64,000 bases of DNA from Chloroflexota bacterium (GCA_947446285.1 CANFGH010000002.1:8000-71999); one strand, 5' to 3'. Numbered from the stretch's first letter, positions 10,191 to 36,614 are shown. Notes: generated by a model from the sequence alone, not told the origin. A program made the numbers and translations.

Positions 10191-11720
10191 TCACTTCACC
10201 GCCGTGATGAACCGAACCCGAGCAAATGGGCGCAGGAAGCGGTGCAACGGTGCGGTGAGTTCGTAAAGCCGACCAAGCGGGCCGGCAAGCGGCGCCACGG
10301 CACGAGGCAGTGCGCGCACCCGGTGCTTCGCCTCATCTGGCGGGGGCAAAGGGAAGGCGCCGTGCCGGTGTTCAATCCGGAAACCCGATTCCACCAAGAG
10401 ATTGCTTACTTCATCGTCTGAGAGGGCCTCGAATGGTCCGAGACTCGGATCGGTGTGCAGCGCGTACTGGACGTCACGCCGGCCAATCAACCACCTAATC
10501 GAGCGGAACACCTCAAAGTACGACCGCACATTCGTGTGGACGACCACCAACGTTCCGCCCGGTTTCAGTATCCGGCGCGCTTCAGCAAGCAGTCGACGCC
10601 TTTCAGCGGTCGGCAGGTTTTCCAACCGGAAAACCAACGTCGCAGCGTCTGCAGACGCGTCCGCGATGTCTGACGAAGCCCCGCCACCCGCAGTCATCGA
10701 GTACTGATGGAATGACGCAGCACGCGGAAGCCGACGCTGCACGAACTCGGCAACCTGCCTGCCCAGTTCAATGAACTGGAAAGACGCCTCGGGCACCTCA
10801 TTCGACATCGCCTCCAGGTAGAGGCCAGTACAGGGAAGCAGGTCTACCGCAACCTTGCCGGATGCGTTGACCCCTGCACGACGTAGGGCATGTCCGAGGT
10901 AGCCACGAACCGCGCGGTACTCGGACACCACCGGCTTGTTATAGCGCGGGCCAGCCCGGATCCGCGCCTGGTGGTAGTCGGCAACCTGCGCCAGGGTCCA
11001 ATTGGTCGGCCGCCATGCCGATGGAAGCACCGGCTTGCGCGTCAGGTCGTACTTCTCCCAGTGCACGAGGTGCGAGGGGTCACGCCGCGCGGGCGCACCC
11101 GGTGTCTCGGCCGGGTAGCCGAACAGCGTCGTTGAAAGCACTTCCACATCTCGAGGAAGGCGCAGGATTTCACGCAACAACAACCGGTCGGTGATCGTCG
11201 CCTGCCAGAATCCCCCCAAGCCAAGAGAGTGCGCCCGCAAGAGCATGTTCATGACCGCTGCTGAGGCACTCTGGATGTTTGCGTACGACCCTTGGGAAAA
11301 CCGCGTGTTGTAGCAAATAAATATGCATACCTGCGCCTTGTCGGCGTGAGGCACAGCCGGGGCGAGGGCGTCACGTGTCGCCTTGTCGGCGATGACGACG
11401 AAGTCCCAGAGCTGCATGTTGCACGCCGATGGCGCCCACAACGCGCACTCGAGCAACTCCTTGACGACTTCCGGTGCGACCGGACGGTCAGTCCAGCGTC
11501 GGATTGTCCTGCGAGTCCGGATGGCCATCGACACATCCATGCCCGAATCCACGTCAAATTCGCTATAGGCACCGTTTTCCGGGCTGCCGAGATCCTCCGG
11601 CGACGCCTCGGCATCATCGATCTCGATGAGCGACGCGTCGTCATCTTCAGAAGTCAGCGGCTTCGCCGTCGAAGTCATCAGGCGTTTCCTTTTCTGCGTC
11701 GCCCACATGCCGCGCGACAA
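10191..11720 (-). CDS. Fusion protein: N-terminal nitroreductase-family (FMN) domain plus C-terminal class I SAM-dependent methyltransferase domain
   Basis: 509-aa ORF. RTRRTIRRWTDRPVAPEVVKELLECALWAPSACNMQLWDFVVI is a nitroreductase signature. C-terminal half has VDLLPCTGLY (motif I-like) and ILKPGGTLVVVH (post-II/III-like). Confidence 0.75.
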   Translation of the reverse strand: MSRGMWATQKRKRLMTSTAKPLTSEDDDASLIEIDDAEASPEDLGSPENGAYSEFDVDSGMDVSMAIRTRRTIRRWTDRPVAPEVVKELLECALWAPSACNMQLWDFVVIADKATRDALAPAVPHADKAQVCIFICYNTRFSQGSYANIQSASAAVMNMLLRAHSLGLGGFWQATITDRLLLREILRLPRDVEVLSTTLFGYPAETPGAPARRDPSHLVHWEKYDLTRKPVLPSAWRPTNWTLAQVADYHQARIRAGPRYNKPVVSEYRAVRGYLGHALRRAGVNASGKVAVDLLPCTGLYLEAMSNEVPEASFQFIELGRQVAEFVQRRLPRAASFHQYSMTAGGGASSDIADASADAATLVFRLENLPTAERRRLLAEARRILKPGGTLVVVHTNVRSYFEVFRSIRWLIGRRDVQYALHTDPSLGPFEALSDDEVSNLLVESGFRIEHRHGAFPLPPPDEAKHRVRALPRAVAPLAGPLGRLYELTAPLHRFLRPFARVRFITAVK

Positions 11721-18876: not shown

Positions 18877-20109
18877 TCAGTTCGCGGACGGCATCCCCGC
18901 CGGCCCGTTCTTCCATCCAGTCGCCGAAATCGGGCCGGTGAACCCGTTCCGCGCAGCCGCAATCGATGCGACCGTCTGCGGTCCCAGTTCCGCCGCGTGG
19001 GGTGAGACGTGCGCCTCGCCAGCCGCCGGAGCCGCGATCGAGGTCAGACGCCCGGTCGGCAAGGATGATGGACGGATCTGCTTCTCGATGGCGTCAAACA
19101 GCGACCAAGAAGGCGTGTCCTTCTGCCAAACAGCATCGCATCCGGCACAGAGTGGCGCTTCCTTGTACCGCCCCTCCACCTGAAGGGTGCGAAGCTTCAC
19201 CATCTCGGGCCCATTCCACACGTCCATCAGGGAACTGGTCTTCAAGTTGCCGATCAACTGGTCGGCCGTGAAATCAGCGCAGCACGAGGCAACCCGTCCA
19301 TCCCAGTAGATGGCCAGGCTCTTCCACAGCCAGTTGCAGGGGTGATAGTTCTCCCCGTAGGGCTGCGCCTCCACAACCTCGTTCTCCTGCATCACCCCAG
19401 CCCAGCCATGGGGCCAGATCGGATCCCATTCATCAACCGGCAGGTCAGCAAAGAGGTCCCGCATATGTTGGGGCAGGTTCGGCCCCTTCTGCGTAGCATC
19501 GTAAGGAAGGATCACCTGCATCACTGTGTACGGCGTCGGTCGACCGTTCTCACGGTATTCCTTCACGAGTGCAAGGAACTGCCGAACGTTTTGGAGTGTG
19601 ACCTCGTACTTCGCACCCTTGCGCATGATCTCGTACATCGCCTTGTCAGGCCCGTCGAACGAGATTGTCACCTTGGATGCGCCGTCTTCCACCAGCATGC
19701 GCGCTTGGCTTTCACGGAGAATGGTTGCGTTGGTGTTCACATGCAAGCGGACGCCTTTGGAGCGACCGTACCGCAAGAGTTCCGGCAGCTTGCGGTGCAG
19801 GAGTGGCTCACCACGGAAGAACAGGTTGATCTCGAGGGCAAACTTCGATGCCTCGTCGACAATCTTCCGGTAGAGGTCCATGTCAATGTAGCCGGTGTCA
19901 CCCTTGACTGCATCAAGCGACTGCGGGCACATCGGGCAGCGCAGGTTGCAGACGCTTGTCGATTCAAGGTGCAGTTTCAGCGGCGGATACGGGAGCGTGG
20001 TCGTGCCACGCATCCAGTGGTACATGAACTGCACGGTACGGGGATGGATGACCGCCTTGTGGCGACGCCAGTTCTTGACAAGTTTGATAGCTTGGTCGAC
20101 CGTATTCAC
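18877..20109 (-). CDS. Radical SAM enzyme with C-terminal SPASM-type auxiliary-cluster domain
   Basis: 410-aa ORF. CX3CX2C motif in LESTSVCNLRCPMCPQ. C-terminal Cys-rich region HPCNWLWKSLAIYWDGRVASCCADF...APLCAGCDAVW. GTG start preceded by AGAGAGGAA. Confidence 0.85.
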   Translation of the reverse strand: MNTVDQAIKLVKNWRRHKAVIHPRTVQFMYHWMRGTTTLPYPPLKLHLESTSVCNLRCPMCPQSLDAVKGDTGYIDMDLYRKIVDEASKFALEINLFFRGEPLLHRKLPELLRYGRSKGVRLHVNTNATILRESQARMLVEDGASKVTISFDGPDKAMYEIMRKGAKYEVTLQNVRQFLALVKEYRENGRPTPYTVMQVILPYDATQKGPNLPQHMRDLFADLPVDEWDPIWPHGWAGVMQENEVVEAQPYGENYHPCNWLWKSLAIYWDGRVASCCADFTADQLIGNLKTSSLMDVWNGPEMVKLRTLQVEGRYKEAPLCAGCDAVWQKDTPSWSLFDAIEKQIRPSSLPTGRLTSIAAPAAGEAHVSPHAAELGPQTVASIAAARNGFTGPISATGWKNGPAGMPSAN

Positions 20110-21816: not shown

Positions 21817-22608
21817 CTAGACGCCCTGAACCTTTCGTCGTGCCCCCATGAGCGCCCACAGGGTCGCAACCCAAAGGATGCCGCACACAACTGCCAACGT
21901 GCCGGGCAACCACGCCGAACCCGCATGCACCGGCATCGCCCGAGCAAGGTTCGTGACCGCGCGTCGCACCCCCGCCGCTACGGTTTCCTCTCCTGCAAGG
22001 CGGATGAGCAGGGTTCCACGTGCCTGGAATGCGTTCACATAGAGTTCCCCACGGACGTACCGGTTGGGAAACTTTGCAAGGGTTGAGATCCGGTTACCCG
22101 CTGTGTCGGTGCCATCGGGATAGGCCAGCGTCACCAAGTACGTGCGCCCTCGCGAGGCTGAGATCGCCTCGAACCGAACCGGAACCCACGTCTCCTCTGG
22201 AGTTCCGGGCCCAATCCTCCATGCAGACCCGACCGGCAATGCCGAAGCGGCAACGGACGACTTGCGGACGACCCGACGACGGTCTGGTGCAGGCAGGACG
22301 GCTGGCCACGAGGCTTCTGGGAGCGCACCATCCGACAATTCCTCAACGGTGAGTTCCACCACTCCCGGCAAGCCTTCCGTCTCGGCTGCCAGGACCAGGT
22401 CAATCTGGGCAAGTCCGTCCCGATCAGGCACCAGCCCCTGAGCGAGTGACGATGCGCCACCCAGTTTCATCTCCAGGGAGGCCGCCGGTGCCGTCTGGTG
22501 GTCAGCCACTACCGATGGGGACTGCCACCAATACCTCGCAGCGAAGCCTCCGGCAAAGATAGGGATACATGCACCGAGCGCGGCCGCGGTCAACCATCGG
22601 CTGTTCAC
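21817..22608 (-). CDS. Hypothetical bitopic/anchored envelope protein
   Basis: 263-aa ORF. N-terminal TM (WLTAAALGACIPIFAGGFAARYWW) and C-terminal TM (LPGTLAVVCGILWVATLWALMGA) flank a beta-rich segment (WVPVRFEAISASRGRTYLVTLAYPDG...YVRGELYVNAFQARGTLLIRL). Divergent from the GT-C array. Confidence 0.55.
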   Translation of the reverse strand: MNSRWLTAAALGACIPIFAGGFAARYWWQSPSVVADHQTAPAASLEMKLGGASSLAQGLVPDRDGLAQIDLVLAAETEGLPGVVELTVEELSDGALPEASWPAVLPAPDRRRVVRKSSVAASALPVGSAWRIGPGTPEETWVPVRFEAISASRGRTYLVTLAYPDGTDTAGNRISTLAKFPNRYVRGELYVNAFQARGTLLIRLAGEETVAAGVRRAVTNLARAMPVHAGSAWLPGTLAVVCGILWVATLWALMGARRKVQGV

Positions 22609-22766
22609 GTATCCGCCAACGAGACCACCACGGCTATGGTCACTCTGGTAACCACGCTCGCGCCACGCCGCGGTATCGTCGGGTACACGGGCATCCTCTC
22701 ACTCCCGTTTATCGTTTGCCAACAGGTATCCCGCCACGTCCCAACCACCGGATGCGTTGTGAAAGT

Positions 22767-24296
22767 GTGACGCCCACACGCGACGCGGGTCGTCGCACAT
22801 CCCCTGAAACCAGCGGCGACGATGCCCCGTGGCGACGCCAATCTGACGCGAGACTGGGTCTCACGGCGGCGGGCGAGTCTGGCCGGGCCAGATGGGGGCG
22901 ATTTGCGTACCTTACGCGTCTTGTCGCGCTGGTGTTTCGCCATTCCACCCTCGTAAGTTGGGTGATCCTGCCAGTCGTGGCGACCGTCCTGCGCCTGGCC
23001 TATGTCGCAACCCTTCCGCCGACCAACATCGTTACTTTTGAAGCCGACCCAATCACCTACGAACAGATTGCCAGAAACATCCTGTCTGGTCGCGGTTACT
23101 CCGGCGCGTCCTTCTACTATCCGCCGGGTTCCGACACCCTCACGTCCTTCTGGGACCCGCTCTACCCCTACTTCCTCGCGGCAATCTACTCCGTGACGGG
23201 TCCGTCCATCCCCGCAGTACGCATCGTCCAGTCAATCATCGGCGGCATCAGCGTCGGCCTGATCGCGCACGTCGGAACCCGTCTTGGCAGCACTGGCACT
23301 GGCCTGATTGCCTCGGCGTGGGCAACGATCTATCCGTTCTTCTTTTACTACACGGGTCAGTTGCTCACCGAGACCGTCTATATCGGACTGATCCTCGCAA
23401 CAGTTGCTCTCGGCATCGAGGCCATCCATCGACGGCACGCCGGGTGGTTTGTCGCCCTTGGCGTTGCTGGTGGTCTCGCCTCCCTCGGACGCGCCGAGGC
23501 ATTTGCATTCACCATCGCGTACGTAGGGTGGTGCGCCACGCGCAGCGTATCTGAACCCAGGGCGAAGGGGTTGGGTGGTTCGGACGCAGGCAAGAACCAA
23601 TCGCCACTTGAAGGGCAACACTCCTGGTCCGATGCCAAACGTCCCTACATATCCTCCGGGTGGGTCCCCTTGATCACGGTCGGATGGTTGGCCATGGCAG
23701 TCCCGATTGCCCCGTGGGCAATCCGGAACTACATCGTATTTGACCGGCCAATCATGACAACAACCAAGCTCGGCTACAACTTGTACAAGTATTACCATCC
23801 GTTGATGACCGCCGATCAGACCGTCCGGATTGTCCCGTTCCCCGAGTTCGGGACGATGACCGAACCTGAACGCGCCGACCTGATGCAAGCCATCGGCATC
23901 GGGTACATGCTCGAGGACCCGTTGCGAACCGCCACGTTTATGGTGTCGAAGTTCTTCCTGCTGTTCAAGCTGACCCCATCAAACGACGCAACCCGAGGCT
24001 ACGCGCTTGTCAGTCTTTTGAGTTACGGCATCCTGCTGCCGTTCATGGCCGCCGGTGCCGTGATGGCCCTCTTGCGTGGCAAGGCGTGGTGGCCCCTTCT
24101 CGGGTACGTCGCTTTCAACATCGCTTCAAAAACCGCGGTGTTTGCGGGGATCCGATTGCGGATGCAGATCGAACCGTTCTTGCTCATCCTGGCGGCCTTC
24201 GCGGTCGTGAAAATTGGCGAAGCCTTGCGTAATGGCGAGGCAGCGTGGGTACTTGGTGCGCGGCACCGCATTGGTTTCGCCTCGCCACCCCAATGA
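22767..24296 (+). CDS. GT-C family glycosyltransferase candidate (ArnT/PMT_2, GT39/GT83-like)
   Basis: Frame is open from 22569 but overlaps the divergent gene. First plausible start is GTG 22767 (uncertain). Shows TM1, then FEADPITYEQIARNILSGRGY (acidic first-loop motif), then many TM helices. Confidence 0.7.
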   Translation: MTPTRDAGRRTSPETSGDDAPWRRQSDARLGLTAAGESGRARWGRFAYLTRLVALVFRHSTLVSWVILPVVATVLRLAYVATLPPTNIVTFEADPITYEQIARNILSGRGYSGASFYYPPGSDTLTSFWDPLYPYFLAAIYSVTGPSIPAVRIVQSIIGGISVGLIAHVGTRLGSTGTGLIASAWATIYPFFFYYTGQLLTETVYIGLILATVALGIEAIHRRHAGWFVALGVAGGLASLGRAEAFAFTIAYVGWCATRSVSEPRAKGLGGSDAGKNQSPLEGQHSWSDAKRPYISSGWVPLITVGWLAMAVPIAPWAIRNYIVFDRPIMTTTKLGYNLYKYYHPLMTADQTVRIVPFPEFGTMTEPERADLMQAIGIGYMLEDPLRTATFMVSKFFLLFKLTPSNDATRGYALVSLLSYGILLPFMAAGAVMALLRGKAWWPLLGYVAFNIASKTAVFAGIRLRMQIEPFLLILAAFAVVKIGEALRNGEAAWVLGARHRIGFASPPQ

Positions 24297-27253
24297 CCGG
24301 TCAGGCTTCGCCAAGTACGCACCCCGTTCCGGAATGGAGTGCCGAACGTAGTGCATCTACGTCAGGCAGCAAAGATGGGGAGCCGGGGACAGGAAGCCCC
24401 CGTGGGCAACCATCACCATGGCGATTGGCAGGGATTGTGTTCCTGTTCTTTGCCTGTCTCTACGCGTCCACCGCCGGGGCCGTTGGGTATTCCGTCGATG
24501 GCCAATTCTCGTACCGTGTCGCGCGAGACATGGCCAACCGAGGCGTAGTGGCCGCTTTCGAGAAGGAACGCGACCTCTTGCGCCGGTGGGGTCCGGGCCT
24601 GCCTCTCATTGGCGCACCATTCGTGTGGATCGGCGAACGCATCGCCCGCGCCATGCCTCCCATGCACAGCCTGGTTCTGGCAGACCTTCCAGGCGAAACC
24701 GGTCCACGTCCCGTCTTGCTAACCGACACACCTCCAATCAGTCGGGATCGCATCAACGCGCCACAGGACCAGTCCTCACTAACCCTCCCCATCCCGGCCG
24801 GGACTGGTCAGATCACTGCGTTGACCCTCATTTCCTATCTCTCGTTCGCCCGCGACATCCCGACGGGAACGCCAATCGCGACTGCCACCTTCTTCGATGC
24901 CGATGGGCGGACCCTCGGCGAAGTGATCCCCATCAGGGTGGGCGATGACACCTCGGAATGGGCATACGACGACCCAATCCAGGGCAAACCCGTCCATTCG
25001 CGGGCGAAGGTCGCCGGGATGTGGACGGGCAACCCGGATGCAGTCATCTACCGGATGACCGCTCCGGTCGCCAAGGGCGATCTGACTACAAATCAAGTGG
25101 GGAGGGGAGGGGAGGGGGTCGCATCTTCAATCAGGTTCGACGCGGTCACCGAGACCGGGCGGCTTCATTTGCGCGCGGTCTTGGTCAGAGGCGAACGCGG
25201 TTCGAAAGCCGTGACCGAAGTCACGAGTGGCTCCACTCACGAGACGGCGGATTGGGTGACCCGAGCCGCCTTCGGGTTTGCGAACGTGATCCCCGGCGCG
25301 GCATCTGTAGGACTTCTCATTCCGATCGCCAGTTGGTATGGCGCGTCGCGTCGCACCACCTTGACCATCGCATTGCTTTTTGGGGGCGCAACCCTCGCCT
25401 GGCCATACGCCCGCTTTGACTTCTCGGAGACGCTTGCCGGCGCGTTTGCGATCGGGGCATTCGCCGCCCGCATCGCATCAATCGACGCGACGACCACCCG
25501 TTGGACCGTGATGTTCAACCTGATCGCCGCGCTCGCTACCGTCGGGGCCGGGCTCACCAAGTACACCGCTCTCTGGTTCATCGGACTGATAGCGATTGAC
25601 GCCATCGTGCACCCAGGGCGCATTCCCCGGACCGTCACCGCAGTCGCCATCGCAATCCTAGGAATGCTGGTCGGGGTCGTCGCCCTAGCTGGTGGGGTGT
25701 CGGCGCCAATCCTCATAACCCAGTTGTGGGATGGGCTGACGCGCGGTTGGCTTGGCTTTCCGCTTTGGGCGGGACTTGCCAGTCTGGTGCTGTCGAGCGG
25801 CAAGGGCTTGGTCTGGTTCGCGCCGCCGGTGCTTCTCGCCGGTATGGGTGCCGTGTCGTTCGTTCGCCGTCACGGATCTCGGGCCTGGATTCCGGTCGCG
25901 GTCTCGCTCATGTATCTCGCAATTTTTGGCAGCAAGGGCGGGTGGCATGGCGGAGGTTGGGGTCCGCGCTACCTGGTGCCGATGGTCCCATTCCTGATGC
26001 TTCTCTCGCTTCCGGTGATTGGGGCCGCCGTTGATCGCGAACCCGACGCACCTCGCGCTTTCGGGGAGGGCCAAGCCAAGCGTCTAGCAATCAAGAGCGA
26101 TGGGGGAGGGCGGGGCTGGATCCGGTTTGCGCAGTGGGCGACCATCTTGACGACTTTGGCAGGGCTGGCTGTCCAGACGGAGGTCGTCCTGAAGCACCCC
26201 AATGCCTACTCGATCATGTTCCGTGACCACATAGCCCCGGAACTGGACGGCTACGGGATTGCAGTCGGCGGAACGTTGGCATCGACTTATGCCGAGTACT
26301 ACCGTGTAGAGAAGGCGCGATCCGAACTGGTGTCCCCGCCTGGTGCGCCAACGGACATCCACGGCAACCCGCTTCCGCGGCGAGGCCTTGGGCATGCCAT
26401 CGACCGCGATAGCCCGATGGTGGTGAAGATCTGGCCCGAGCGCACGGGACGCTTCCGCCTCACGGTCTACCTGTGCAACTACGACGGACTACCCGAAGAG
26501 GACCGGTTCCAGAACATGACGGTTGTCGATGCCTCTGACATCCAGTCGGTGATGGTGACGGACTTTGCCCGTGGTGAATACATCACGTGGGTGGTGGATG
26601 CACGTGTCGGCGACCCGGTCACCCTTCTCGCGTACGACTCCGGTTCGGCGTTCCCGGTCGTTTCCGCGCTCTTTTTCGACCCGGACACCGAGACGAGCGG
26701 GCCGGTGTCACCAATCCAGGACCGGTCGACTGGCGGCGACTGGGTTGGCCGGTACGGGCGTGACGGTGCACTCCTCCTTGCCTGGGAGATGGGACCCCGC
26801 GACGTTGGCAAACTCCCGCCCTACATCAATGCGGTCACTGGAGGCGAGCGGGTCTGGGTGGACACCGGCGAGGCCGAGCGGTCGGAGATCGCCATGCTGT
26901 ACGCGCCCGGGTTCAGTCCATTGCTCGCCCACGCATGGTTGCTTGGCAACGACCTGATCCGCTTCTTGTGGCCCGCCGATGCCGCGTTGCAGCAACGTGC
27001 CCTCGCGTCACCACCCTGGCGCTACGTACATGGATTGGAAGTGCACAGCCCGCATCCGGAGTACGGTCTCGGCATCGACCTGTGGCCGATCGAGGCGCGC
27101 CAGATGTTCGCATCGCACTCCGGTGTGATGGCTGCGGTGTGGGTCGTTGAGGGACTGTTCCTCATTGGACTGGCCGTTGCGGCGGTCATGGTGGTCCGCG
27201 CGTGGAACAACAGTGGTGCGGCTGCTCCCGGAGAAGGGAGGGAACGCCCGTGA
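24293..27253 (+). CDS. Giant polytopic membrane protein, paralog A (GT-C-like core with two large soluble inserts)
   Basis: ATG 24293 overlaps the upstream TGA (ATGA). TM1, then GYSVDGQFSYRVARDMA. A ~200-aa insert carries IRVGDDTSEWAYDDP. About 10 further TM helices, then a ~330-aa soluble region (GGDWVGRYGRDGALL..LPPYINAV), then terminal TM helices. Confidence 0.65.
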   Translation: MTGQASPSTHPVPEWSAERSASTSGSKDGEPGTGSPRGQPSPWRLAGIVFLFFACLYASTAGAVGYSVDGQFSYRVARDMANRGVVAAFEKERDLLRRWGPGLPLIGAPFVWIGERIARAMPPMHSLVLADLPGETGPRPVLLTDTPPISRDRINAPQDQSSLTLPIPAGTGQITALTLISYLSFARDIPTGTPIATATFFDADGRTLGEVIPIRVGDDTSEWAYDDPIQGKPVHSRAKVAGMWTGNPDAVIYRMTAPVAKGDLTTNQVGRGGEGVASSIRFDAVTETGRLHLRAVLVRGERGSKAVTEVTSGSTHETADWVTRAAFGFANVIPGAASVGLLIPIASWYGASRRTTLTIALLFGGATLAWPYARFDFSETLAGAFAIGAFAARIASIDATTTRWTVMFNLIAALATVGAGLTKYTALWFIGLIAIDAIVHPGRIPRTVTAVAIAILGMLVGVVALAGGVSAPILITQLWDGLTRGWLGFPLWAGLASLVLSSGKGLVWFAPPVLLAGMGAVSFVRRHGSRAWIPVAVSLMYLAIFGSKGGWHGGGWGPRYLVPMVPFLMLLSLPVIGAAVDREPDAPRAFGEGQAKRLAIKSDGGGRGWIRFAQWATILTTLAGLAVQTEVVLKHPNAYSIMFRDHIAPELDGYGIAVGGTLASTYAEYYRVEKARSELVSPPGAPTDIHGNPLPRRGLGHAIDRDSPMVVKIWPERTGRFRLTVYLCNYDGLPEEDRFQNMTVVDASDIQSVMVTDFARGEYITWVVDARVGDPVTLLAYDSGSAFPVVSALFFDPDTETSGPVSPIQDRSTGGDWVGRYGRDGALLLAWEMGPRDVGKLPPYINAVTGGERVWVDTGEAERSEIAMLYAPGFSPLLAHAWLLGNDLIRFLWPADAALQQRALASPPWRYVHGLEVHSPHPEYGLGIDLWPIEARQMFASHSGVMAAVWVVEGLFLIGLAVAAVMVVRAWNNSGAAAPGEGRERP
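25099..25118 (+). other. Canonical G-quadruplex-type motif GGGG-A-GGGG-A-GGGG-A-GGGGG on the sense strand of paralog A
   Basis: Read directly: gtggggaggggaggggagggggtc. Encodes VGRGGEGV. Confidence 0.85.
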
Positions 27254-30243
27254 TTGCCTTCCTGACGGCGCGACGCCACGGTGACGCACAAACGACGCGC
27301 AGATCCACCTGGCGCCGTGGGGTGGGGTTGAACCTGACGGCCATCGTCCTGGCGATCTACCTGATGACCGGAGGCGGCCATGGCTACAGCATTGACGGCG
27401 CCTTTGCGTTCGAGATGACCAAGACTGCCTTCCTCGATCCGGATCATCAGTACTTCACACGGTTCAAGACCGCGTTTGCCCGGTGGGGAATTGGGCTGCC
27501 GATCATCGGGCAACCGTTCATCCTTGCCGGGGCGGCGCTTGGAACCATTGCTCCCGAACGCGACGACTTGACCGCGGATGGCCACCGCTTCCGAGTCGAA
27601 GAGTGGCCCGTGGTGTCGGCCGGGAAGACCGAGATCTTCCCGGTGCCGGGTTCCATCGTCTCTGGCTCCCCGGTGACCACGTTCACCATTGTCAGCTTTC
27701 TGGCCAACACGGTGGCGGTGCCTGACGGGACGACGGTTGCCGAACTGCGCCTGGTAACCGCCACGAACACGGTGACGATCCCTATTCGCGCCGGGATGGA
27801 GACCGCCGAGTGGGCGTGGGATCGACCGGATATCCGGGGAACGGTCGCTCACGCACGCGCACGTGTCGCCGGGCACTGGATCGGCCAACCGAGGGGAAAC
27901 CTCTACATCGCTTCGATACCGGTTCCAGTGCCAGTGTCGATCGACCGGTGGGAAGTTGCCGGGTCCGGTGGCCTTGGTCAGGCCGGTACCTTTTCGCTTC
28001 GCGCGGTCACGATCGGCACGGTGCCTGCCCGCACCCCGACTCCGTCAACGCCCGTAACGTGGCATGACGCACGAACCGGCGAGCGATTCTGGTCCGAACG
28101 GCAGACGGGCGACTTCTTTGCTCACCTCGGGTTCAGCGTCACCAATGCCGTGGTCACCGCCGCAACGGTCTGGGCGCTGTATCGCGCCACCCTGAACTTC
28201 GGCTACCGCCCGGTCGTCGCCCTCATTGTCGGTGCAGCGTTTGGCTTGGGAACCCTCGCGTGGCCGTACGCGAAGTATGACTTTGCAGAACCGACCGCAT
28301 CGCTCGCCTTGGCGTTGGCGGTACTGGCAATCCACCGGAACTTTCCGCCGAGTGTCACTCCCAGCCCGGCAACACCAGCATGGGCACGCCGTTCGACGTC
28401 GGTCCCGCCTACCCCCCTCGCGACGCGGGAAGGGGGAGTGGGCGTTCTCTCGGCCATGCCGGCGCTCCCGGGGTTCGCGGACCCTCTACCACTGCGGCGC
28501 AAATTACGCGTCATGGCCTACACGACGATGCTGGCCCTGATCTTCGCCATCGGGGCGAAGTACACCGCCATCCTCGGGGTCGTCGCGGTCGTCGCCGAGC
28601 TTTTCGTCACATCGCAACCGTGGCGACGTGACCGGCGACGCGATGCCCTCCGGTTTGCGGGAATAGTCGCCTTGCCGGGCGTTGCCGTCGCCACGGCAGC
28701 CATCGGTGTTGGCCTCTGGACGACGGGTGAGACCCCGATCGTGCTTACCTCGGACCTGTCGCGCCTCACCAGTGACTGGCTCTCGCTGCCGTTTTGGACA
28801 GGTTTCCGGGGCCTCGTATTCAGTTTGGGGAAGAGTCTTTTCCTGTATGCTCCATGGCTGCTGCTCGCAATCCCCGGGTCGATCCTTTGGGTCAGGCGCC
28901 ATCGCTTCTCTGGATCCGCGCTGACGGTGGTGTTTCCAATCGTCACGATCCTGCTCTACAGCATGAAACTTGTCTGGCATGGCGGATCATGGGGACCCCG
29001 CTACCTGCTGATGACCGTCCCATGGTTGACCCTCGCTACCGCACCAGTCGTTGACACTCTCATCACACGCCGTTTCGGGCGTGTGATCCTGAGCGTCCTG
29101 GCCACTATGTCTCTCGCAATCCAGGTGATCGCCATCGCCAAGCATCCGGAGCAATACCCGGCGATGGTTCGCCGCCATGTCGTGCCCACCATGACACAGT
29201 TCGGCGCAACGTATGGAGGCCAAGACTATTGGGATGCGCGAAAAGGTGACCGCCTTGTCATGGCACTCCGCGACCCGGATCCCGAGACCGGCCGGTCACG
29301 CAGTCTTGGGTACCTATGGGGGCTTCCCGATGCATCGGTAACCATCACCGCACCCGAAAGCGAAGGGCCAATCCTCCGGGATGTCAACCTGAGCCTCTAC
29401 GTCATTGACTGGGACCGGCAGGGGCGGACCGAAACGATGACGATCACCGACGCAATCGATACCCGCCGGGTTGACCTCGACCAAGGTCTGGACGAAGGTG
29501 TCTGGGTTCGCGCCGTCATCCGTATCGACCCGGCCAACCCGGTCACTGTGGGAATCCGGCAGACCGGACCAGACACCGCGGTGGTGTCGGCGATGACCTT
29601 TGATCCCATCTCCCCCGGAATGGCCGGTTCCTCGCGGGAGGTTCGCCTCGATCGGCACACCCGTGGCGAATGGCCTGGCACCTACGGACGCGATGGGTAT
29701 GCCTTCTTTGGGTTCCGAAGCTTCAACATTGACCTGGCGAAACTGCCTCCCTACGTCAAGGGATACGAACTCCGCCACGTCGGAGACCGAGAACACCCCA
29801 CCATCCACGTCGAAATTCCCGAAGACGACCTTCTCGATACCGCAATGCTGTACGCCCCACCGTTCAGTCCCATCCTGGGAAACATCTGGCTCCTTGGCGC
29901 AGATGCATTCCACCTTGTGCTGCCATCACGACCGGACTTCACCCAGGGTGTCCTCCTGCGCCCTCCGTGGACGTGGTTTGGCATCAGTGCCCCAGTCCCA
30001 CCTCACCCTGAATATGGACTCGGTCTCGACTTCTGGCCGACGTTGATCTGGACTACGTATGCATCTCACACTGGCGTGATTGTCGTATCGGGAACCGTCC
30101 TCCTTGGCCTCCAAGGGGTAATCCTCACCTGCACGAACCAGTTGCTCTCAACACTTGGGCTGGTCCGTCGCTCTCGCCTGACCTCAATCGGGGTTGTCAC
30201 CGCGATGCTGGTGGTCTTCGACTGGCTGCAGGTGCAGGGGTGA
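27250..30243 (+). CDS. Giant polytopic membrane protein, paralog B of 24293..27253
   Basis: GTG 27250 overlaps the upstream TGA (GTGA). Collinear with paralog A: GYSIDGAFAFEMTKTAF; IRAGMETAEWAWDRPDIRG; RGEWPGTYGRDGYAF..LPPYVKGY. Has an extra ~40-aa loop that coincides with a hairpin-repeat copy. Confidence 0.65.
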   Translation: MIAFLTARRHGDAQTTRRSTWRRGVGLNLTAIVLAIYLMTGGGHGYSIDGAFAFEMTKTAFLDPDHQYFTRFKTAFARWGIGLPIIGQPFILAGAALGTIAPERDDLTADGHRFRVEEWPVVSAGKTEIFPVPGSIVSGSPVTTFTIVSFLANTVAVPDGTTVAELRLVTATNTVTIPIRAGMETAEWAWDRPDIRGTVAHARARVAGHWIGQPRGNLYIASIPVPVPVSIDRWEVAGSGGLGQAGTFSLRAVTIGTVPARTPTPSTPVTWHDARTGERFWSERQTGDFFAHLGFSVTNAVVTAATVWALYRATLNFGYRPVVALIVGAAFGLGTLAWPYAKYDFAEPTASLALALAVLAIHRNFPPSVTPSPATPAWARRSTSVPPTPLATREGGVGVLSAMPALPGFADPLPLRRKLRVMAYTTMLALIFAIGAKYTAILGVVAVVAELFVTSQPWRRDRRRDALRFAGIVALPGVAVATAAIGVGLWTTGETPIVLTSDLSRLTSDWLSLPFWTGFRGLVFSLGKSLFLYAPWLLLAIPGSILWVRRHRFSGSALTVVFPIVTILLYSMKLVWHGGSWGPRYLLMTVPWLTLATAPVVDTLITRRFGRVILSVLATMSLAIQVIAIAKHPEQYPAMVRRHVVPTMTQFGATYGGQDYWDARKGDRLVMALRDPDPETGRSRSLGYLWGLPDASVTITAPESEGPILRDVNLSLYVIDWDRQGRTETMTITDAIDTRRVDLDQGLDEGVWVRAVIRIDPANPVTVGIRQTGPDTAVVSAMTFDPISPGMAGSSREVRLDRHTRGEWPGTYGRDGYAFFGFRSFNIDLAKLPPYVKGYELRHVGDREHPTIHVEIPEDDLLDTAMLYAPPFSPILGNIWLLGADAFHLVLPSRPDFTQGVLLRPPWTWFGISAPVPPHPEYGLGLDFWPTLIWTTYASHTGVIVVSGTVLLGLQGVILTCTNQLLSTLGLVRRSRLTSIGVVTAMLVVFDWLQVQG
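28412..28438. repeat. GC-rich hairpin repeat copy inside the CDS of paralog B
   Basis: cccccctcgcgacgcgggaagggggag is the reverse complement of the 15096-15122 core (cgcgggaagggggag identical). Translated as PTPLATREGGVG. Confidence 0.75.
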
Positions 30244-33173
30244 GTTCCGACAGCGGGCTCCCCACCCCATCGCCCCTGAGTGCAAGACGCTTCGCTCCTC
30301 GCCACGATCCAGGCGCGCATCGCACGAAGCAAAGCGTGAGTCAGTCGGGCGGGGCGGGCTGGTGGTCGGGTTTCGCCTGGATTCCGCTTGTCGTTCTCGC
30401 CGGGTGGTATCTCTGGCCAATCGCGGGACCAGGTCGGCTTCCCCAGAACCTCGACCTCATGCTTCAGTACGTCCCGAACGCCGCGCATCTTGCCCGTTCC
30501 CTTTCGCAGTGGCACATCCCCCTCTGGAACCCATGGCAGGGCGGCGGGATGCCATTTGCCGCCGATCCCGGCACCGGCGCCTGGTATGTCCCGAACTGGA
30601 CACTGCTTGCAGGCCTGGATCTCTGGAGTGCAGTACGTGCGTCAATCTGGTTTCACCTCGCAACTGCGATTGCCGGCACGTGGTTCTGCCTTCGGCATGG
30701 CGTGCGCGTCGGCCCGATTGCTGCAATTGCGGGGACGGCGACATTCACGCTGACTCCTTGGTTGCCGGGCATCGCCGGGATGCCGGTCGTACTCACGAGC
30801 CTGGCCTGGATGCCGTGGGTTGTCTTCGCCGGACTGCATCTGGCGACACTGTCCAGACCGTCGGCCCGCCTCATCGGTGTCCTTGCAACATCCACGACAT
30901 TGCAACTGGCCAGTGGATGGCCTGCCGGTGCCTACCTGTCGTGGTTGACCATTGGTGGCGCGATTCTCCTCGGTCATGGACGCGCAAATGAACGATGGGT
31001 CCAACGCTTGCGCCACCTCATCCCGAGTTACGTGGCCTCAGGGTTGCTTGCTTCGGTCATGGCAGGCGTAGTCCTGATCCCAGGTGCCGAGTTCGTCGCG
31101 GAGACGACCTACGCCACCACGAGGCCCCTCGAAAGCCTCGGCAGTGACGGGTACCTGACCCTGCTATCGTGGCTTCGCCCAGCTGCCGGGGCGGGCGCCG
31201 TCGAAGGTGGACAGGTCTCAGTCGGAATCGTGGCCCTCTGCCTCGCCGTGACTGCACCGGCCATCCTCTGGCGCACGGGTCATCACGACAGGTTGACCAT
31301 CTGGGGTGGGGTGGCCCTGGTGTCCATCGTTCTGTCGTGGGGTACGCGAACCCCACTGTTCGGCCTTCTCTACGCGTGGCTGCCGGGCTTTCGGATCCTG
31401 TACCTGCCAGCACGCCTCGGGATCATCGCTGCATTCGCACTGTCAGCGCTCGCTTCATTAGTGATCGACGTTCTGGACAAGCCACCCAACGAGGGGCGAG
31501 ACCCATCCTACCTATCTCCCGCGACGCAAAGGCAATTCGCCACCACCCCGCCGCCCCTGATGTCCATGCGCTTCACTACCATCTGCGGACTTCTGACGGC
31601 CCTTCCCGTCATGATGATCCTCCAGTTCTGGCATTCGGAGGGGTACGACAACTTCCGTCGCCTCCTCACGAACCTCTGGCGCATTGCCGGGACACCGTTC
31701 CTCACCGTGGGTCAGGAATTCCACACGCTGGTGTTCGGACTGGTCGTCCTGGCGATCCTATTTTCGAACCAGCGCCGTCCAGTCCCAAAGGCCGGGGTTC
31801 TCTTGGCGATTGCAGTGATCGCCGATCTCGGATCGCTGCGATTGATGACCCAGAATGTGTCGTTCAACCCAGATGCTTGGTACGCCCCAGCCTACGCGTC
31901 AGCACGAACGATCGCGCTGAGCATTGGTCACGACCGCTATCTCGGTCTTGTCTGGCACGGAGAAGACCTGCCACGCCACTTCCTCGGCGACTTCCCAAGC
32001 GCTACACGAACCGGTCAACTACCGCCAAATCTCGGTCTCCTCACGGCGACACGAGACGCCCAAGGTTACAACCCGCTCATCCTGCGGACCGCAGCGACTG
32101 CCTTCGCGAACGTGGGCAACAACGACGATCACTGGCTGTGGGCCAACCGGTTCGACACCGCCGGCCTCTCACCCCTTGCCGTCCGTGCCATCATAATGGG
32201 AGAGGCCGGCGTCACTTCGAGAAATACTTCCCTAGTTGCCAGTGAATGGCGGGTGACCACCCTTGACCTCGGGCAGGCCACCGCGGACTGTTGTTCGGAA
32301 GTACCAATCTGGTCGGCAACCGGCAACCCGGTATTCACTGGCCTCCTGGAGGCGATCACTTTTTTCGGGGAAGGTACAACGGTTGCGCAAGGACAGACCG
32401 CTGCTGAAATCCGCCTGACCGGCCCTGACGGTACGACGGCAACCTACCCACTCCGTGCAGGCGTCGAAACTGCCGAATGGGCGTGGGACCGACCAGACGT
32501 CCGCACGATCGTGACGCATGGTCAGGCCCCCGTTGCACTGGTCACTCGCATGGTCAGTGCCGTTGGCGGACGATTCGACACCTTCGAATACCGTGCCACC
32601 CTGCCAATAGCACTTCCGGGTGGGATCGTGAGTGCCACGTTGCGGTCAACGATCCCGGGAGTGCGCGTTCACCTGACACACCTCGCCATGCATCCTCCAA
32701 CCGACATGGAGCCATGGGTGCGGGAACCGTGGGGCATGCGCGCCACCAGTACGACCCCATCACTCGTCCCTGATGATCGCTCCGTTTGGCCTCCAACGCG
32801 CCTTCGGGTTGTCCCGCCGGAAGCCGGAACCGCAACGTGGGTGACCGACGACCCAGAACGTCTGGTCATCTCCACGTCCCTTGCATCCGATGCCATGATC
32901 GTGATTGCGGACACCGACTATCCTGGATGGCGGGTTTCGATCGACGATGTGGCGACTGCGGATGCGTCCCCACATACGCTGAGCGCGTCGCAGGGAGTGC
33001 GTTCACCTGACATTCCGTTCGGTCGGTCGATACCGTCACCAGCCGGAAAACACGTGATCGAACTGACCTTCGATCCGTCGTCGACGCGTCTCGGCTTTGC
33101 CATCAGTTGCATCGGCATCATGGTCGCAGGGTTCCTTATCAGCTTTGACCCCTCACCAATTCGCCGTGTCTAA
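30240..33173 (+). CDS. Large polytopic membrane protein, YfhO-like, with C-terminal 'ETAEWAWDRPD' module
   Basis: GTG 30240 overlaps the upstream TGA (GTGA). An alternative start at GTG 30336 would exclude a repeat copy. YfhO-type motif SQWHIPLWNPWQGGGMPFAADPGTGAWYVP. C-terminal LRAGVETAEWAWDRPDVR and DTDYPGWRVSIDD, then a final TM. Confidence 0.65.
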   Translation: MSSDSGLPTPSPLSARRFAPRHDPGAHRTKQSVSQSGGAGWWSGFAWIPLVVLAGWYLWPIAGPGRLPQNLDLMLQYVPNAAHLARSLSQWHIPLWNPWQGGGMPFAADPGTGAWYVPNWTLLAGLDLWSAVRASIWFHLATAIAGTWFCLRHGVRVGPIAAIAGTATFTLTPWLPGIAGMPVVLTSLAWMPWVVFAGLHLATLSRPSARLIGVLATSTTLQLASGWPAGAYLSWLTIGGAILLGHGRANERWVQRLRHLIPSYVASGLLASVMAGVVLIPGAEFVAETTYATTRPLESLGSDGYLTLLSWLRPAAGAGAVEGGQVSVGIVALCLAVTAPAILWRTGHHDRLTIWGGVALVSIVLSWGTRTPLFGLLYAWLPGFRILYLPARLGIIAAFALSALASLVIDVLDKPPNEGRDPSYLSPATQRQFATTPPPLMSMRFTTICGLLTALPVMMILQFWHSEGYDNFRRLLTNLWRIAGTPFLTVGQEFHTLVFGLVVLAILFSNQRRPVPKAGVLLAIAVIADLGSLRLMTQNVSFNPDAWYAPAYASARTIALSIGHDRYLGLVWHGEDLPRHFLGDFPSATRTGQLPPNLGLLTATRDAQGYNPLILRTAATAFANVGNNDDHWLWANRFDTAGLSPLAVRAIIMGEAGVTSRNTSLVASEWRVTTLDLGQATADCCSEVPIWSATGNPVFTGLLEAITFFGEGTTVAQGQTAAEIRLTGPDGTTATYPLRAGVETAEWAWDRPDVRTIVTHGQAPVALVTRMVSAVGGRFDTFEYRATLPIALPGGIVSATLRSTIPGVRVHLTHLAMHPPTDMEPWVREPWGMRATSTTPSLVPDDRSVWPPTRLRVVPPEAGTATWVTDDPERLVISTSLASDAMIVIADTDYPGWRVSIDDVATADASPHTLSASQGVRSPDIPFGRSIPSPAGKHVIELTFDPSSTRLGFAISCIGIMVAGFLISFDPSPIRRV
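30261..30300 (+). repeat. Copy of the CCCCATCGCCCCTGA repeat family at the 5' end of the YfhO-like gene
   Basis: cccaccccatcgcccctgagtgcaagacgcttcgctcctc. Confidence 0.8.
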
Positions 33174-34502: not shown

Positions 34503-36614
34503 TCACGTAACCGGGCCATCACCTTCGTCGGCCAAGCGTTCGACCTGCCATGCGGCAGCCCAGGCAGTCACCGAAACCACGAGCAATCCGACCATGACCA
34601 GGACACCGGAAACTGCGGGGTTGCCGTCTGGTCCCCGTAGCCAGTGGATGTCAAGGCTGGCGTCGCCACCGCGAAGCCACAGGCGCGAGAGTCGCACATG
34701 CGCGGTGACCCCCGAGAAGTACGGCACCCACGTCGTCGCCAGGTAGGTCGCCCCGAGTGACCAATGGTCCTGCCATCCCCGACTGAAGTCGACAACGATG
34801 GCCAAGGCATTTGCCACGACATTCAAAGCCCACGGCAGCCCAATCGCAAGCCAGGCAAAAGGGTTCCTGCTCATTCCACCCCGCCCACTCGCCCCCGATT
34901 GAGCGTCGCTCCGCTTCGCCCACCCCATCCGCTTCACAATCGCCGCGACAGGGAGGTACGCCAACGGTGCTACCCCAACCAAGTATCGCGGGCCCCATGT
35001 CGTCTGGGCGCACCACGTTGTCTCGAGGCTTCCGTAATACAGGCACGCAAGACCCACCATGGCTGCAACCGCACCGGCCGTATCCGGGGCGTCCTCCCAG
35101 AGCCAGACCAGCCCCGCGAGACCAACGAACATCATTGGCGCATGCACGGCAATCCCGCATCCCGGACTGAACAGAAGCCCGAACCACCCATACCACGGCT
35201 TCTCCAGCAACGAAGAGAGGAATCCTTCTCCGCCATAGCCGAAATCGAGGGCCTGACCGGTCCGCATCAGGTTGTAGCCAAGGGTAAGTGGCAGTGCGGT
35301 CACGCCACCGGCCACCACGGCCAGTCCCCCCAGGAATGCCCCGCCTGCGAGTCCGGACCGTTGGAAAACCACCCAGGCGAGCAATGCCCACAGTGGCAAG
35401 GCGAGGACCAGATATTCGTACCGCGCCGCCCCGGCGAGGCCGAGGAGGGCGCCGGCGAGGGCAGCCATGCGACCGGCGTCGAAATCAGGAGCTTTGGGTT
35501 CCCGGTTGGGTCGGTCAACCCCAGTTGCGCGACGCAGGTACCCGATCACCGCCATGGCCGCCCCGGTCAGGGCCGCCGGAAGTGCCATGTTGAGAACAGT
35601 GCGCGAATACGGCCAAACCAAGGAGGCCGTGGCAACCGCCAATGCCGGCAAAAGCGACGATGCCCCACGATACCCAAGTGAACGAGCCATGAGATAGGTC
35701 ACCATCACGGTCAATGCGCTGAGGAATGGCCCGAACCCAAGTGTCACGAGGTCTGGTGCACGGCGGGCCAGCGGACCTTGCCCGGCGGTACGCGGTTCAG
35801 GCGCACCGAATATCCGCGCAACTGCCTGAAAGGGAGAAATCGCCAACGACGAAAGCACTGGGTACTTCGACATGAGGCCAGAAGACTCTTCCTCGGGGTG
35901 ACCAGGCCGACGCACAATTCCGACAACCGTGAACGGGTAGGGTTCGCCATCGAAGATGGCTAGCCGCCCATGTTCCACCAGACCGACCGCGGCACCGTGT
36001 GCCGTCCATTCGTCAGGTGTCACGAGTTCGCCGGATGCCGTCGCCACAAAGAAGGCAAACGCACCACCAAGGACAAGAAGTGTCACCGTGGCCCCATGTC
36101 GGCCACTTTCCGACGGGCGAAGCACACCCACATCCGTCAAGACAGGATCGGATTGCCGTTGGTCGCGAGTTGGTCCGTAACCAGTCCGAATGCGCCATTC
36201 CACCGCAGCGATGGCCAGCCGCGAAACCAGGATGATTCCGATCAGCAGCGCGATCGCCCCTCGAACACGGGGCAAGGTCGCCCACGCATGATTCAGGTCG
36301 TCACTGACCCATAGCGAGCCAAGCAATAGTGCGAGCGCACCAACTTCCAAGAACAGAAAAGGTCTTGAGGTACCGCCGCCTGGCAATACCGTCACCAAAC
36401 CATCCGGGCGCGTGTCGCGACGCTGATGAAGCCAACTCGCAGCGATAACGGCGAACCCGCCACCAGCGCCGACGATCAGTGCTGGCACAAGCCACGCAAA
36501 ACTTGCCCCTAACCCGCGTTGGCCGGTCGCGACACTTCCACCAAACCACCCGGCGAGGACCGCACCAAGCAGGACACTCCACGGGGCCGGCAATGTCCAC
36601 CGCACCTCACGCAT
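34503..36614 (-). CDS. Polytopic membrane protein, GT-C-like candidate
   Basis: 703-aa ORF with >12 hydrophobic segments. First loop GELVTPDEWTAHGAAVGLVEHG, then KYPVLSSLAISPFQAVARIFG and LTVMVTYLMARSLGYRGA..LVWPYS. Same order of elements as paralogs A/B but without the large inserts. Confidence 0.6.
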   Translation of the reverse strand: MREVRWTLPAPWSVLLGAVLAGWFGGSVATGQRGLGASFAWLVPALIVGAGGGFAVIAASWLHQRRDTRPDGLVTVLPGGGTSRPFLFLEVGALALLLGSLWVSDDLNHAWATLPRVRGAIALLIGIILVSRLAIAAVEWRIRTGYGPTRDQRQSDPVLTDVGVLRPSESGRHGATVTLLVLGGAFAFFVATASGELVTPDEWTAHGAAVGLVEHGRLAIFDGEPYPFTVVGIVRRPGHPEEESSGLMSKYPVLSSLAISPFQAVARIFGAPEPRTAGQGPLARRAPDLVTLGFGPFLSALTVMVTYLMARSLGYRGASSLLPALAVATASLVWPYSRTVLNMALPAALTGAAMAVIGYLRRATGVDRPNREPKAPDFDAGRMAALAGALLGLAGAARYEYLVLALPLWALLAWVVFQRSGLAGGAFLGGLAVVAGGVTALPLTLGYNLMRTGQALDFGYGGEGFLSSLLEKPWYGWFGLLFSPGCGIAVHAPMMFVGLAGLVWLWEDAPDTAGAVAAMVGLACLYYGSLETTWCAQTTWGPRYLVGVAPLAYLPVAAIVKRMGWAKRSDAQSGASGRGGMSRNPFAWLAIGLPWALNVVANALAIVVDFSRGWQDHWSLGATYLATTWVPYFSGVTAHVRLSRLWLRGGDASLDIHWLRGPDGNPAVSGVLVMVGLLVVSVTAWAAAWQVERLADEGDGPVT

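Follow-up and report, generated by a model that had tools for sequence, protein, structure and literature searches.

A predicted β-sandwich module with a conserved loop signature is shared by different families of polytopic membrane proteins in Chloroflexota and other bacteria

Introduction

Glycosyltransferases of the GT-C fold that act on polymers are already known to carry lectin-like external domains: EmbC has a lectin-like C-terminal domain, and the eukaryotic PMT proteins carry a luminal MIR domain, a soluble, lectin-like β-trefoil in the extracytoplasmic loop between transmembrane (TM) helices TM7 and TM8. Mycobacterial AftD is a GT-C enzyme with three carbohydrate-binding modules (CBMs), which were proposed to keep a large acceptor glycan close to the active site (bioRxiv 10.1101/2019.12.22.885152, PDB 6wbx), and some of which bind Ca2+. 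The YfhO family (PF09586) comprises GT-C proteins for teichoic-acid glycosylation, for example YfhO of B. subtilis (PMC5836110). Here we analyse a 64,000-nucleotide stretch of DNA from a Chloroflexota bacterium (GCA_947446285.1, CANFGH010000002.1:8000-71999; hereafter the window, with positions counted from its first letter), in which three adjacent genes encode large polytopic membrane proteins, the paralogs A and B and the YfhO-like protein C. An earlier note, made from the sequence alone, had pointed to a motif shared by the three proteins, and we find that this motif is the most conserved part of a module of about 135 residues that recurs widely in proteins of this general kind.

The module resembles the CBMs of AftD in being a predicted extracytoplasmic β-sandwich that is fused to a polytopic GT-C core and can be present in multiple copies. 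It differs from them in that there is no sequence similarity and only a weak fold resemblance (TM-score ≤0.44), in its strictly conserved loop signature, which those CBMs lack, and, for A and B, in its predicted position inside the first extracytoplasmic loop (EL1), whereas the AftD modules are appended after the TM core. The insert of B also recalls the MIR arrangement, in that a PMT-clan GT-C protein carries an additional domain within one of its extracytoplasmic loops, but this insert is a β-sandwich in EL1 and has no homology to MIR. The YfhO family is the host of copy C and of most other carriers of the module. What is new is the domain family itself, with its signature motif and its occurrence on three host families, and, for A and B, the predicted insertion within EL1.

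Detection of the module in the window

Six-frame translation of the window yields the string EWA[WY]D exactly three times, at 24956–24970 in A, 27808–27822 in B and 32475–32489 in C, all within the motif intervals of the earlier note. In BLASTP comparisons A and B align as paralogs over their whole length (30% identity, E = 3e-92), and C aligns with each of them in the module region: B and C share 47% identity over 79 residues (E = 4e-14) in an alignment confined to that region, and A and C share 29% over 106 residues (E = 2e-4). A profile hidden Markov model (HMM) of the module, run against all window open reading frames (ORFs) of at least 50 residues, detected three copies (domain E = 4e-44, 2e-41 and 3e-32) and no further one, the next-best match having E = 0.05; in the same scan a second YfhO protein of the window (4911–7772) and the other GT-C-like ORFs were without the module. 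The module shared by A, B and C is real, and its similarity lies far beyond chance.

All three copies lie on the plus strand. By HMM envelope, copy A (residues 175–319) occupies 24767..25201 (E = 8.5e-33) and is the most divergent of the three, copy B (residues 140–275) occupies 27619..28026 (E = 1.3e-44), and copy C (residues 682–823) occupies 32283..32708 (E = 5.6e-42). The whole β insert of B is somewhat longer, residues ~120–292 (27559–28077, plus strand), with strands at residues 122–290 in a full-length AlphaFold model. The signature loops, likewise on the plus strand, read RVGDDTSEWAYDDP-IQGKPVH in A (24935..24997), RAGMETAEWAWDRPDIRGTVAH in B (27787..27852) and RAGVETAEWAWDRPDVRTIVTH in C (32454..32519).

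These results refine the first description in several respects. A module was indeed present, although the envelopes give it 125–145 residues and not the 150–200 first proposed, and the three motif intervals were right, although copy C extends to about nucleotide 32708, past the limit of 32640 set for the region. The strand said to precede each core, G-T-T-(V/I)-A-E-(I/L)-R-L, can be made out clearly in B (GTTVAELRL), while C has it in part (GQTAAEIRL) and A only weakly (GTPIATATF), and the family consensus at this position is only 'qG..Va'.

Domain family, fold and signature

A known named family was considered for the module and rejected, since Pfam, NCBIfam and PDB searches all lacked a match over it, in agreement with the earlier note, which had recognised none. 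Specifically, Pfam-A (2025 copy) and NCBIfam r20 placed no model over the module in full-length A, B and C, in other carriers, in multi-copy proteins or in isolated modules; a sequence and profile search of the PDB with the module gave noise only (E ~0.5); PDB sequence searches with both host-family profiles gave nothing over the module and no solved structure of YfhO-type proteins; and a search of the literature on the YfhO β-sandwich and on Thermoflexus glycosyltransferases found nothing relevant to the domain. For all scanned carriers, the best YfhO match reported covered the final ~45–80 residues of that model and never the module; because this match falls outside the module, and because the other YfhO protein of the window is module-less, the module is best seen as an optional insert and not as a family-defining part of YfhO.

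An AlphaFold model of C residues 675–830, built from 51 diverse sequences, has a predicted local distance difference test score (pLDDT) of 93.9 and a predicted TM-score (pTM) of 0.86, with nine strands and one short helix. From this model we are confident in predicting that the module is an autonomous, jelly-roll-like β-sandwich of about 135 residues. Its most conserved part is the consensus signature R-A-G-x-[ED]-T-A-E-W-A-[WY]-D-R-P-D-V-x5-H, together with one Tyr; in the C model the signature spans the long stretch that links strands 5 and 6, and the short helix falls on PDVR. Conservation was computed over 161 modules from all three host families described below and reaches 100% for G54 and E59, 99% for H73 and 98% for T57 and Y94, followed by A53 (96%), W60 (95%), D66 (94%), A61 (93%) and R64 (91%); the signature Pro is conserved at 79%. 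In C the invariant residues are R739, G741, T744, E746, W747, D750, R751, D753, H760 and Y784. Copy A of the window deviates at two of the conserved columns, with R64 replaced by D and D66 deleted.

The PDB neighbours of the model in Foldseek include the C-terminal CBM of AlgX (4knc; query-normalised TM-score 0.44), CBM16 (2zey) and CBM6 (1uxz), which are jelly-roll β-sandwiches of similar size and all bind polysaccharide, and also nucleoplasmin, viral capsid proteins and phage tailspike tips; neighbours in BFVD are of a similar kind (tail fibres, lysins and a hyaluronidase). The module nevertheless stands apart from the three CBMs, with query-normalised TM-scores of 0.27–0.44, identities of 7–11% and E-values of 4e-3 to 1e-2. 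As these weak jelly-roll matches are the only ones, the module is CBM-like in fold class alone. It shares with CBMs the form of a discrete β-sandwich carried on GT-C-like proteins, its non-catalytic nature being assumed, but does not group with them by sequence or close structural similarity, there being no Pfam CBM match and no Foldseek match to a CBM with an E-value below 4e-3. Pfam gave no Ig or fn3 match on the module either, the lone fn3_3 match (E = 0.096, in protein P0027) falling outside it, and Ig-like structures are absent among the top Foldseek matches. Thus the clean mapping onto a described CBM or Ig-like family that the earlier note had raised as a way for its proposal to fail was looked for and did not appear. 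We are highly confident that the module represents a genuine new domain family located outside the membrane.

Distribution and host scaffolds

A search profile of 19 module sequences was run against 1.84 billion representative proteins, and matches were counted as clusters at 50% identity. The module was found in 1,672 clusters at E ≤ 1e-3 and in 932 at E ≤ 1e-10, and some proteins contained 2–5 matched stretches. A scan of one genome per species gave 291 confirmed module loci, and among the best 77 of these 291 there were 37 from Chloroflexota, 33 from Acidobacteriota and seven others (two metagenome-assembled genomes (MAGs) labelled Heliobacteria, two MAGs labelled Deltaproteobacteria, one Sphingomonadaceae, one Hyphomicrobium and one unclassified bacterium), of which the lone MAG cases are possibly binning errors. 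The motif lies either at residues ~90–330 or at residues ~470–915 of the host ORF, with one intermediate case.

All-versus-all BLAST of 153 long carriers with the module masked resolved three host families. YfhO-type hosts (84 proteins) carry 1–4 copies by HMM, at about 0.64 of their length, placed in the external loop before the last TM helix; A/B-type hosts (50 proteins) carry one copy, at about 0.12 of their length; and a third family of polytopic proteins of ~842 residues (15 proteins and a few singletons; for example the genomic ORF L043:1926-4499 and proteins P0030–P0048), which has no Pfam or NCBIfam match, always carries two tandem C-terminal copies. Profile–profile comparison with hhalign aligned the module alone between YfhO-type and A/B-type hosts (probability 99.8%, E = 9e-28, 123 columns) and again between the third family and A/B-type hosts (E = 1.7e-25), and neither the module-masked BLAST nor the profile–profile comparison detected any other similarity among the three scaffolds. 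The proposal of one homologous domain in host proteins of different families is borne out by these alignments, and the similarity survives proper alignment with E-values, both here and in the B–C comparison above.

Copies may also be multiplied within a host. Three YfhO-type proteins of 1,368–1,677 residues (P0024, P0025 and P0026) have 3–5 tandem copies between the TM core and the C-terminal YfhO block, and in P0024 and P0026 the first copy has a degraded signature and is still matched over most of the domain profile. At least two module genes lie within 10 kb of each other in at least 18 of the 77 loci, and a pair consisting of an A/B-type gene followed by a YfhO-type gene recurs in four Chloroflexota loci (L001, L003, L005 and L008).

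Host proteins and operon

The longest ORFs of A (1002 residues, a polytopic GT-C-like protein), B (1013 residues, GT-C fold) and C (977 residues, a YfhO-like GT-C protein) lie at 24245..27253, 27202..30243 and 30240..33173 on the plus strand, directly after a gene of the PMT_2 family (GT-C; 22569..24296, plus strand; Pfam PMT_2, E = 9e-13) that lacks the module. Start and stop codons overlap as ATGA at 24293–24296 (PMT_2/A), GTGA at 27250–27253 (A/B) and GTGA at 30240–30243 (B/C). Given these overlaps, the true start of A is likely the ATG at 24293 and that of B the GTG at 27250, in each case 16 codons downstream of the start of the longest ORF; a homolog that is 99% identical to B (P0164) has 997 residues. 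The same overlaps imply that the four genes, from PMT_2 to C, are translationally coupled within a single operon. This operon lies within a very large envelope-polysaccharide cluster (800–44300), with many GT4 and GT2 genes, a Wzx-like Polysacc_synt gene and Wzm/Wzt with a glycan-binding Wzt_C domain; the DNA of the window is ~93% identical to a contig of a Thermoflexus hugenholtzii JAD2 MAG.

Pfam assigned A, B and C to no family at E ≤ 0.1. The description of C as YfhO-like, which therefore does not stand on a Pfam match of its own, does stand through its relatives: PF09586 is matched by 34 of 40 aligned module-bearing relatives of C, and C aligns collinearly by BLASTP with the Pfam-positive YfhO protein of the window (4911–7772), in an N-terminal PLWNP block (E = 7e-6) and a C-terminal YPGW...DG block (E = 0.002). 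The corresponding YfhO blocks, D..L.Y.P...PLWNP..GG.P at the N-terminus and YPGW...DG...AG.H before the last TM helix, are also present in the alignment consensus of the relatives.

For A and B, PF02366 (PMT) is annotated in four A/B-type homologs, and a PMT_2 match was obtained in one of 21 homologs. The full-length AlphaFold model of B, built from 45 sequences, has pLDDT 84.2 and pTM 0.82, and its top Foldseek matches are Pmt4 (including the structures 9i5k and 9e61), STT3, AftA, AftD, ALG9, ALG12 and ArnT, with probabilities of ~0.92–1.0; the E-values are only 1e-3 to 0.2 and the target-normalised TM-scores ≤0.45, so that the similarity is at the level of the fold. In the light of the model, A and B are predicted transferases and can be placed in a PMT/ArnT-like GT-C family specific to Chloroflexota.

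Two further observations concern this family. B has a second all-β external domain near its C-terminus (residues ~700–870; 29300–29810), in which the blocks 'DWDR' and 'GPDTAV.SA..FDP' are conserved, and an equivalent region is present in A; this accessory domain stands apart from the module, to which it is unrelated, and is probably the source of local Foldseek matches to CDTb, iota-toxin Ib and C. difficile RBD1. One A/B-type homolog (P0187) is named 'Cell division protein FtsK' in NCBI/UniRef, which looks like a misannotation.

Placement relative to the membrane

In C, the module lies within a loop of ~415 residues between hydrophobic segments at residues 515–536 and 951–969. The 389-residue loop at the equivalent place in YfhO of B. 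subtilis has a predicted extracellular location, and the architecture of C agrees with that of YfhO as described there (PMC5836110). The flanks of C, with 'SNQRRPVPKAG' before the penultimate helix and an RR-containing tail after the last one, also fit an external loop.

For the placement in A and B, we examined B using the helix and loop order of its AlphaFold model and residue invariance over 45 homologs. TM1 ends at residue 55 and is followed by EL1 (56–298), which contains the near-invariant D65, helices at 64–116 and then the β insert. TM2 (299–332) and TM3 (337–359) are joined by a short inner loop (333–336); EL2, around 360–363, holds the invariant D360 and E363 and leads into TM4 (362–380), after which a disordered inner loop (381–430) precedes TM5 (431–452). 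The invariant K453 marks EL3 (around 453) between TM5 and TM6 (454–471), an inner loop with the sequence 'RRDRRR' (470–480) leads to TM7 (476–508), and the long, helical EL4 (509–550) is followed by TM8 to TM10 (551–621), with the invariant R600 before TM10.

This order was mapped by position onto the published description of the GT-C/PMT-clan core, in which EL1 helps to build both the donor and the acceptor site (PMC7801869). The features of that core recovered in B are an acidic EL1 residue after TM1, helical EL1 and EL4, short EL2, EL3 and EL5, and a basic residue before TM10. Over the 45 homologs, Lys and Arg together reach a density of 0.25–0.27 in the short loops with a predicted inside location, compared with 0.07 for EL2. 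Because the helix and loop order, the invariant residues and these positive-inside counts fit the GT-C/PMT core, we predict that the A/B module is inserted on the extracytoplasmic side, within EL1, where it directly follows the catalytic Asp and the juxtamembrane helices. The earlier note had read the hydrophobic stretch at residues 98–116 of B as TM2 and had been concerned that the insert would then fall in a cytoplasmic TM2–TM3 loop; this stretch has three invariant Pro/Gly positions (G96, P100 and P105), and the model favours assigning it to EL1 as a juxtamembrane or re-entrant helix, a reading under which the concern falls away. A cytoplasmic position of the A/B insert is ruled out, at the level of prediction, by the loop charge and by the mapping onto the GT-C core.

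Possible function

The explanation that we favour for these observations is that the module is a glycan-binding accessory module, to which we give a probability of roughly one half. It would bind glycan in the manner of a CBM, possibly aided by a metal ion, and would keep the exported acceptor polymer in place above the GT-C active site, which faces outward, during sugar transfer from polyprenyl-phosphate donors. As the operon is coupled and sits within a polysaccharide cluster, A, B and C would work on one polymer; they may act on it in turn, with the shared module as a common handle. Several observations favour binding over catalysis: tandem arrays of 2–5 copies keep the motif, divergent copies with a decayed signature still match most of the profile, Trp, Tyr and polar or charged (acidic) residues abound in the signature, and the fold neighbours, weak as they are, include the AlgX CBM, CBM16, CBM6, tail-fibre tips and wall-binding domains of lysins. 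The CBMs of AftD provide a precedent on a polymer-acting GT-C enzyme.

This interpretation must be weighed against four points. CBMs that bind variable glycans do not usually keep a motif so strictly (100% for G and E, 99% for H and 98% for T and Y, in three host families and several phyla), and this unusual invariance leaves some probability to structural or metal-binding, catalytic and non-variable-ligand roles. No characterised CBM was matched significantly by Foldseek in the PDB, none at E ≤ 1e-3 and the best with the AlgX score of 0.44. The topology is a prediction combined with matching motif positions. Finally, the neighbours of carriers in other phyla are mixed, with a GT2 gene in two of six loci, a PMT gene in one of six and a hexapeptide-repeat transferase gene in one of six.

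Of the alternatives, the one that survives best is a structural or scaffolding domain, that is, a spacer, a lid or a surface for interaction with partners or with the TM core, whose signature would stabilise a loop or bind a structural metal and which would have no glycan ligand. Such a role would account for the fold-type residues in the motif (G 100%, A 96% and 93%, P 79%) and for a conservation above the CBM norm, and it finds parallels in the non-lectin jelly rolls among the Foldseek neighbours (nucleoplasmin and viral capsid proteins) and in the purely structural β-sandwich that AftD has beside its CBMs. We nonetheless consider it unlikely: copies with a degraded signature (copy A of the window and the first copies of P0024 and P0026) are still matched by the profile, which suggests that the signature is not needed for the fold, and a portable binding module better explains arrays of up to five copies and the independent acquisition of the module by three host families.

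More doubtful is a bolder proposal, in which the module would be no ordinary CBM but a novel recognition or metal-dependent site for one conserved envelope ligand, and thereby an adaptor that recruits several unrelated lipid-carrier-dependent transferases to one polymer. Candidate ligands would be a lipid-linked intermediate, peptidoglycan or a conserved linkage unit, and an undescribed kind of binding or catalytic centre would be made up of the invariant E, H, T, D, R and Y.

Slightly less probable again is that the module recognises a species-invariant ligand and not a polysaccharide particular to one species, which would account for the invariant motif; peptidoglycan is one candidate, and the head group of lipid-linked intermediates, polyprenyl-(pyro)phosphate, another. 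The signature is the same in Chloroflexota, Acidobacteriota and genomes labelled Heliobacteria and Proteobacteria, and across three scaffolds, and all identified hosts are, or resemble, lipid-carrier-dependent enzymes, which speaks for this idea. It is a purely inferential one, however; in tandem arrays of three to five, not every copy could reach a head group lying at the surface of the membrane, and Pfam scans show no similarity to peptidoglycan-binding domains such as LysM, SH3b, PGRP or SPOR.

The least favoured functional alternative is a small enzyme or catalytic helper that trims, deacylates or otherwise processes the polymer, or that lends residues to the GT-C site, with E, H, D, T, R and Y as a catalytic or metal centre. 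We regard this as improbable even though the near-invariance of these residues across phyla and hosts (E 100%, H 99%, T 98%, Y 98%, D 94%, R 91%) and the placement of the A/B module in EL1, the loop that helps to build the donor and acceptor sites, would both suit it. Repeats of 2–5 copies that retain the motif would be unusual for a catalytic domain, there is no sequence or fold match to any enzyme family, and the modules of YfhO-type and third-family hosts are far in sequence from the EL1 catalytic loop.

Whichever function applies, the module is well suited to be proposed as a new domain or CBM family; in principle, it is no surprise. It is difficult to assign substrates to the GT-C enzymes that modify the polymers of bacterial envelopes, and the module offers a handle on their recognition and a practical entry to the substrates of YfhO-type proteins; at about 135 residues, soluble and confidently modelled, it is a small target for binding and structural work. 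The signature enables annotation of a nameless region in about a thousand proteins called 'hypothetical' or 'YfhO family', and the module may serve as a marker for polysaccharide pathways in Chloroflexota and Acidobacteria, the envelopes of which are poorly known. According to the model, A and B also illustrate that EL1 of a PMT/ArnT-like protein can accommodate a whole inserted domain.

Evolutionary history

Judged from these sequence comparisons, at least three polytopic membrane scaffolds have acquired the module during evolution, and this shuffling is ancient. Synonymous sites between B and C are saturated. Of 35 positions at which the two copies have the same residue, 10 also have the same codon; codon usage alone would give 12.4. 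Compared along its full length, the B module is 32% identical to that of C and has a median identity of 32% to YfhO-type modules and of 49% to A/B-type modules elsewhere.

The earlier note had called the domain mobile or shuffled, and had given the B and C motif regions ~75% identity at the nucleotide level. The figure holds for the 15-codon RAG..RPD core only (34/45 nucleotides, hand count) and not beyond it, identity being 64% over a 25-codon core and 53% over 76 aligned codons; the high identity of the core reflects purifying selection on the signature. Shuffling across families is upheld, and mobility in the sense of recent exchange is not, the nucleotide identity being no evidence for it. 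Recent DNA exchange between the neighbouring genes, by gene conversion or as a mobile cassette, to which the adjacency of B and C and the 76% identity of the 45-nucleotide core might point, is highly improbable, because nucleotide identity over the aligned codons is low, same-codon use is below the chance expectation, B is closer to its A/B-type orthologs than to C, and the A/B-type and YfhO-type pair is also found in Chloroflexota whose B-type module is only ~50% identical to that of the window. By codon-level identity and by the nearest neighbours of the modules, this origin is rejected and, as far as the sequences reach, refuted.

Other genes of the cluster

Several other genes of the polysaccharide cluster deserve mention. 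Directly upstream of the PMT_2–A–B–C operon, a divergent 263-residue ORF with a C-terminal hydrophobic anchor (21817–22608, minus strand) has no Pfam or NCBIfam match and is unrelated to the module (HMM E = 8.5). Large polytopic proteins without the module are encoded on the minus strand at 4911–7772 (the Pfam-positive YfhO), at 7833–10088 (751 residues, no Pfam match) and at 34503–36614 (703 residues, with a weak NCBIfam match to the LA_3751/LA_3752 'putative glycosyltransferase' family), and these three bring the total of GT-C-like proteins in the cluster to about seven. The ORF at 18877–20109 is, by the appearance of its sequence, a candidate radical-SAM-like protein. The cluster further contains a nitroreductase–methyltransferase fusion (10191–11720) and a GT2–GT4 fusion of 1010 residues.

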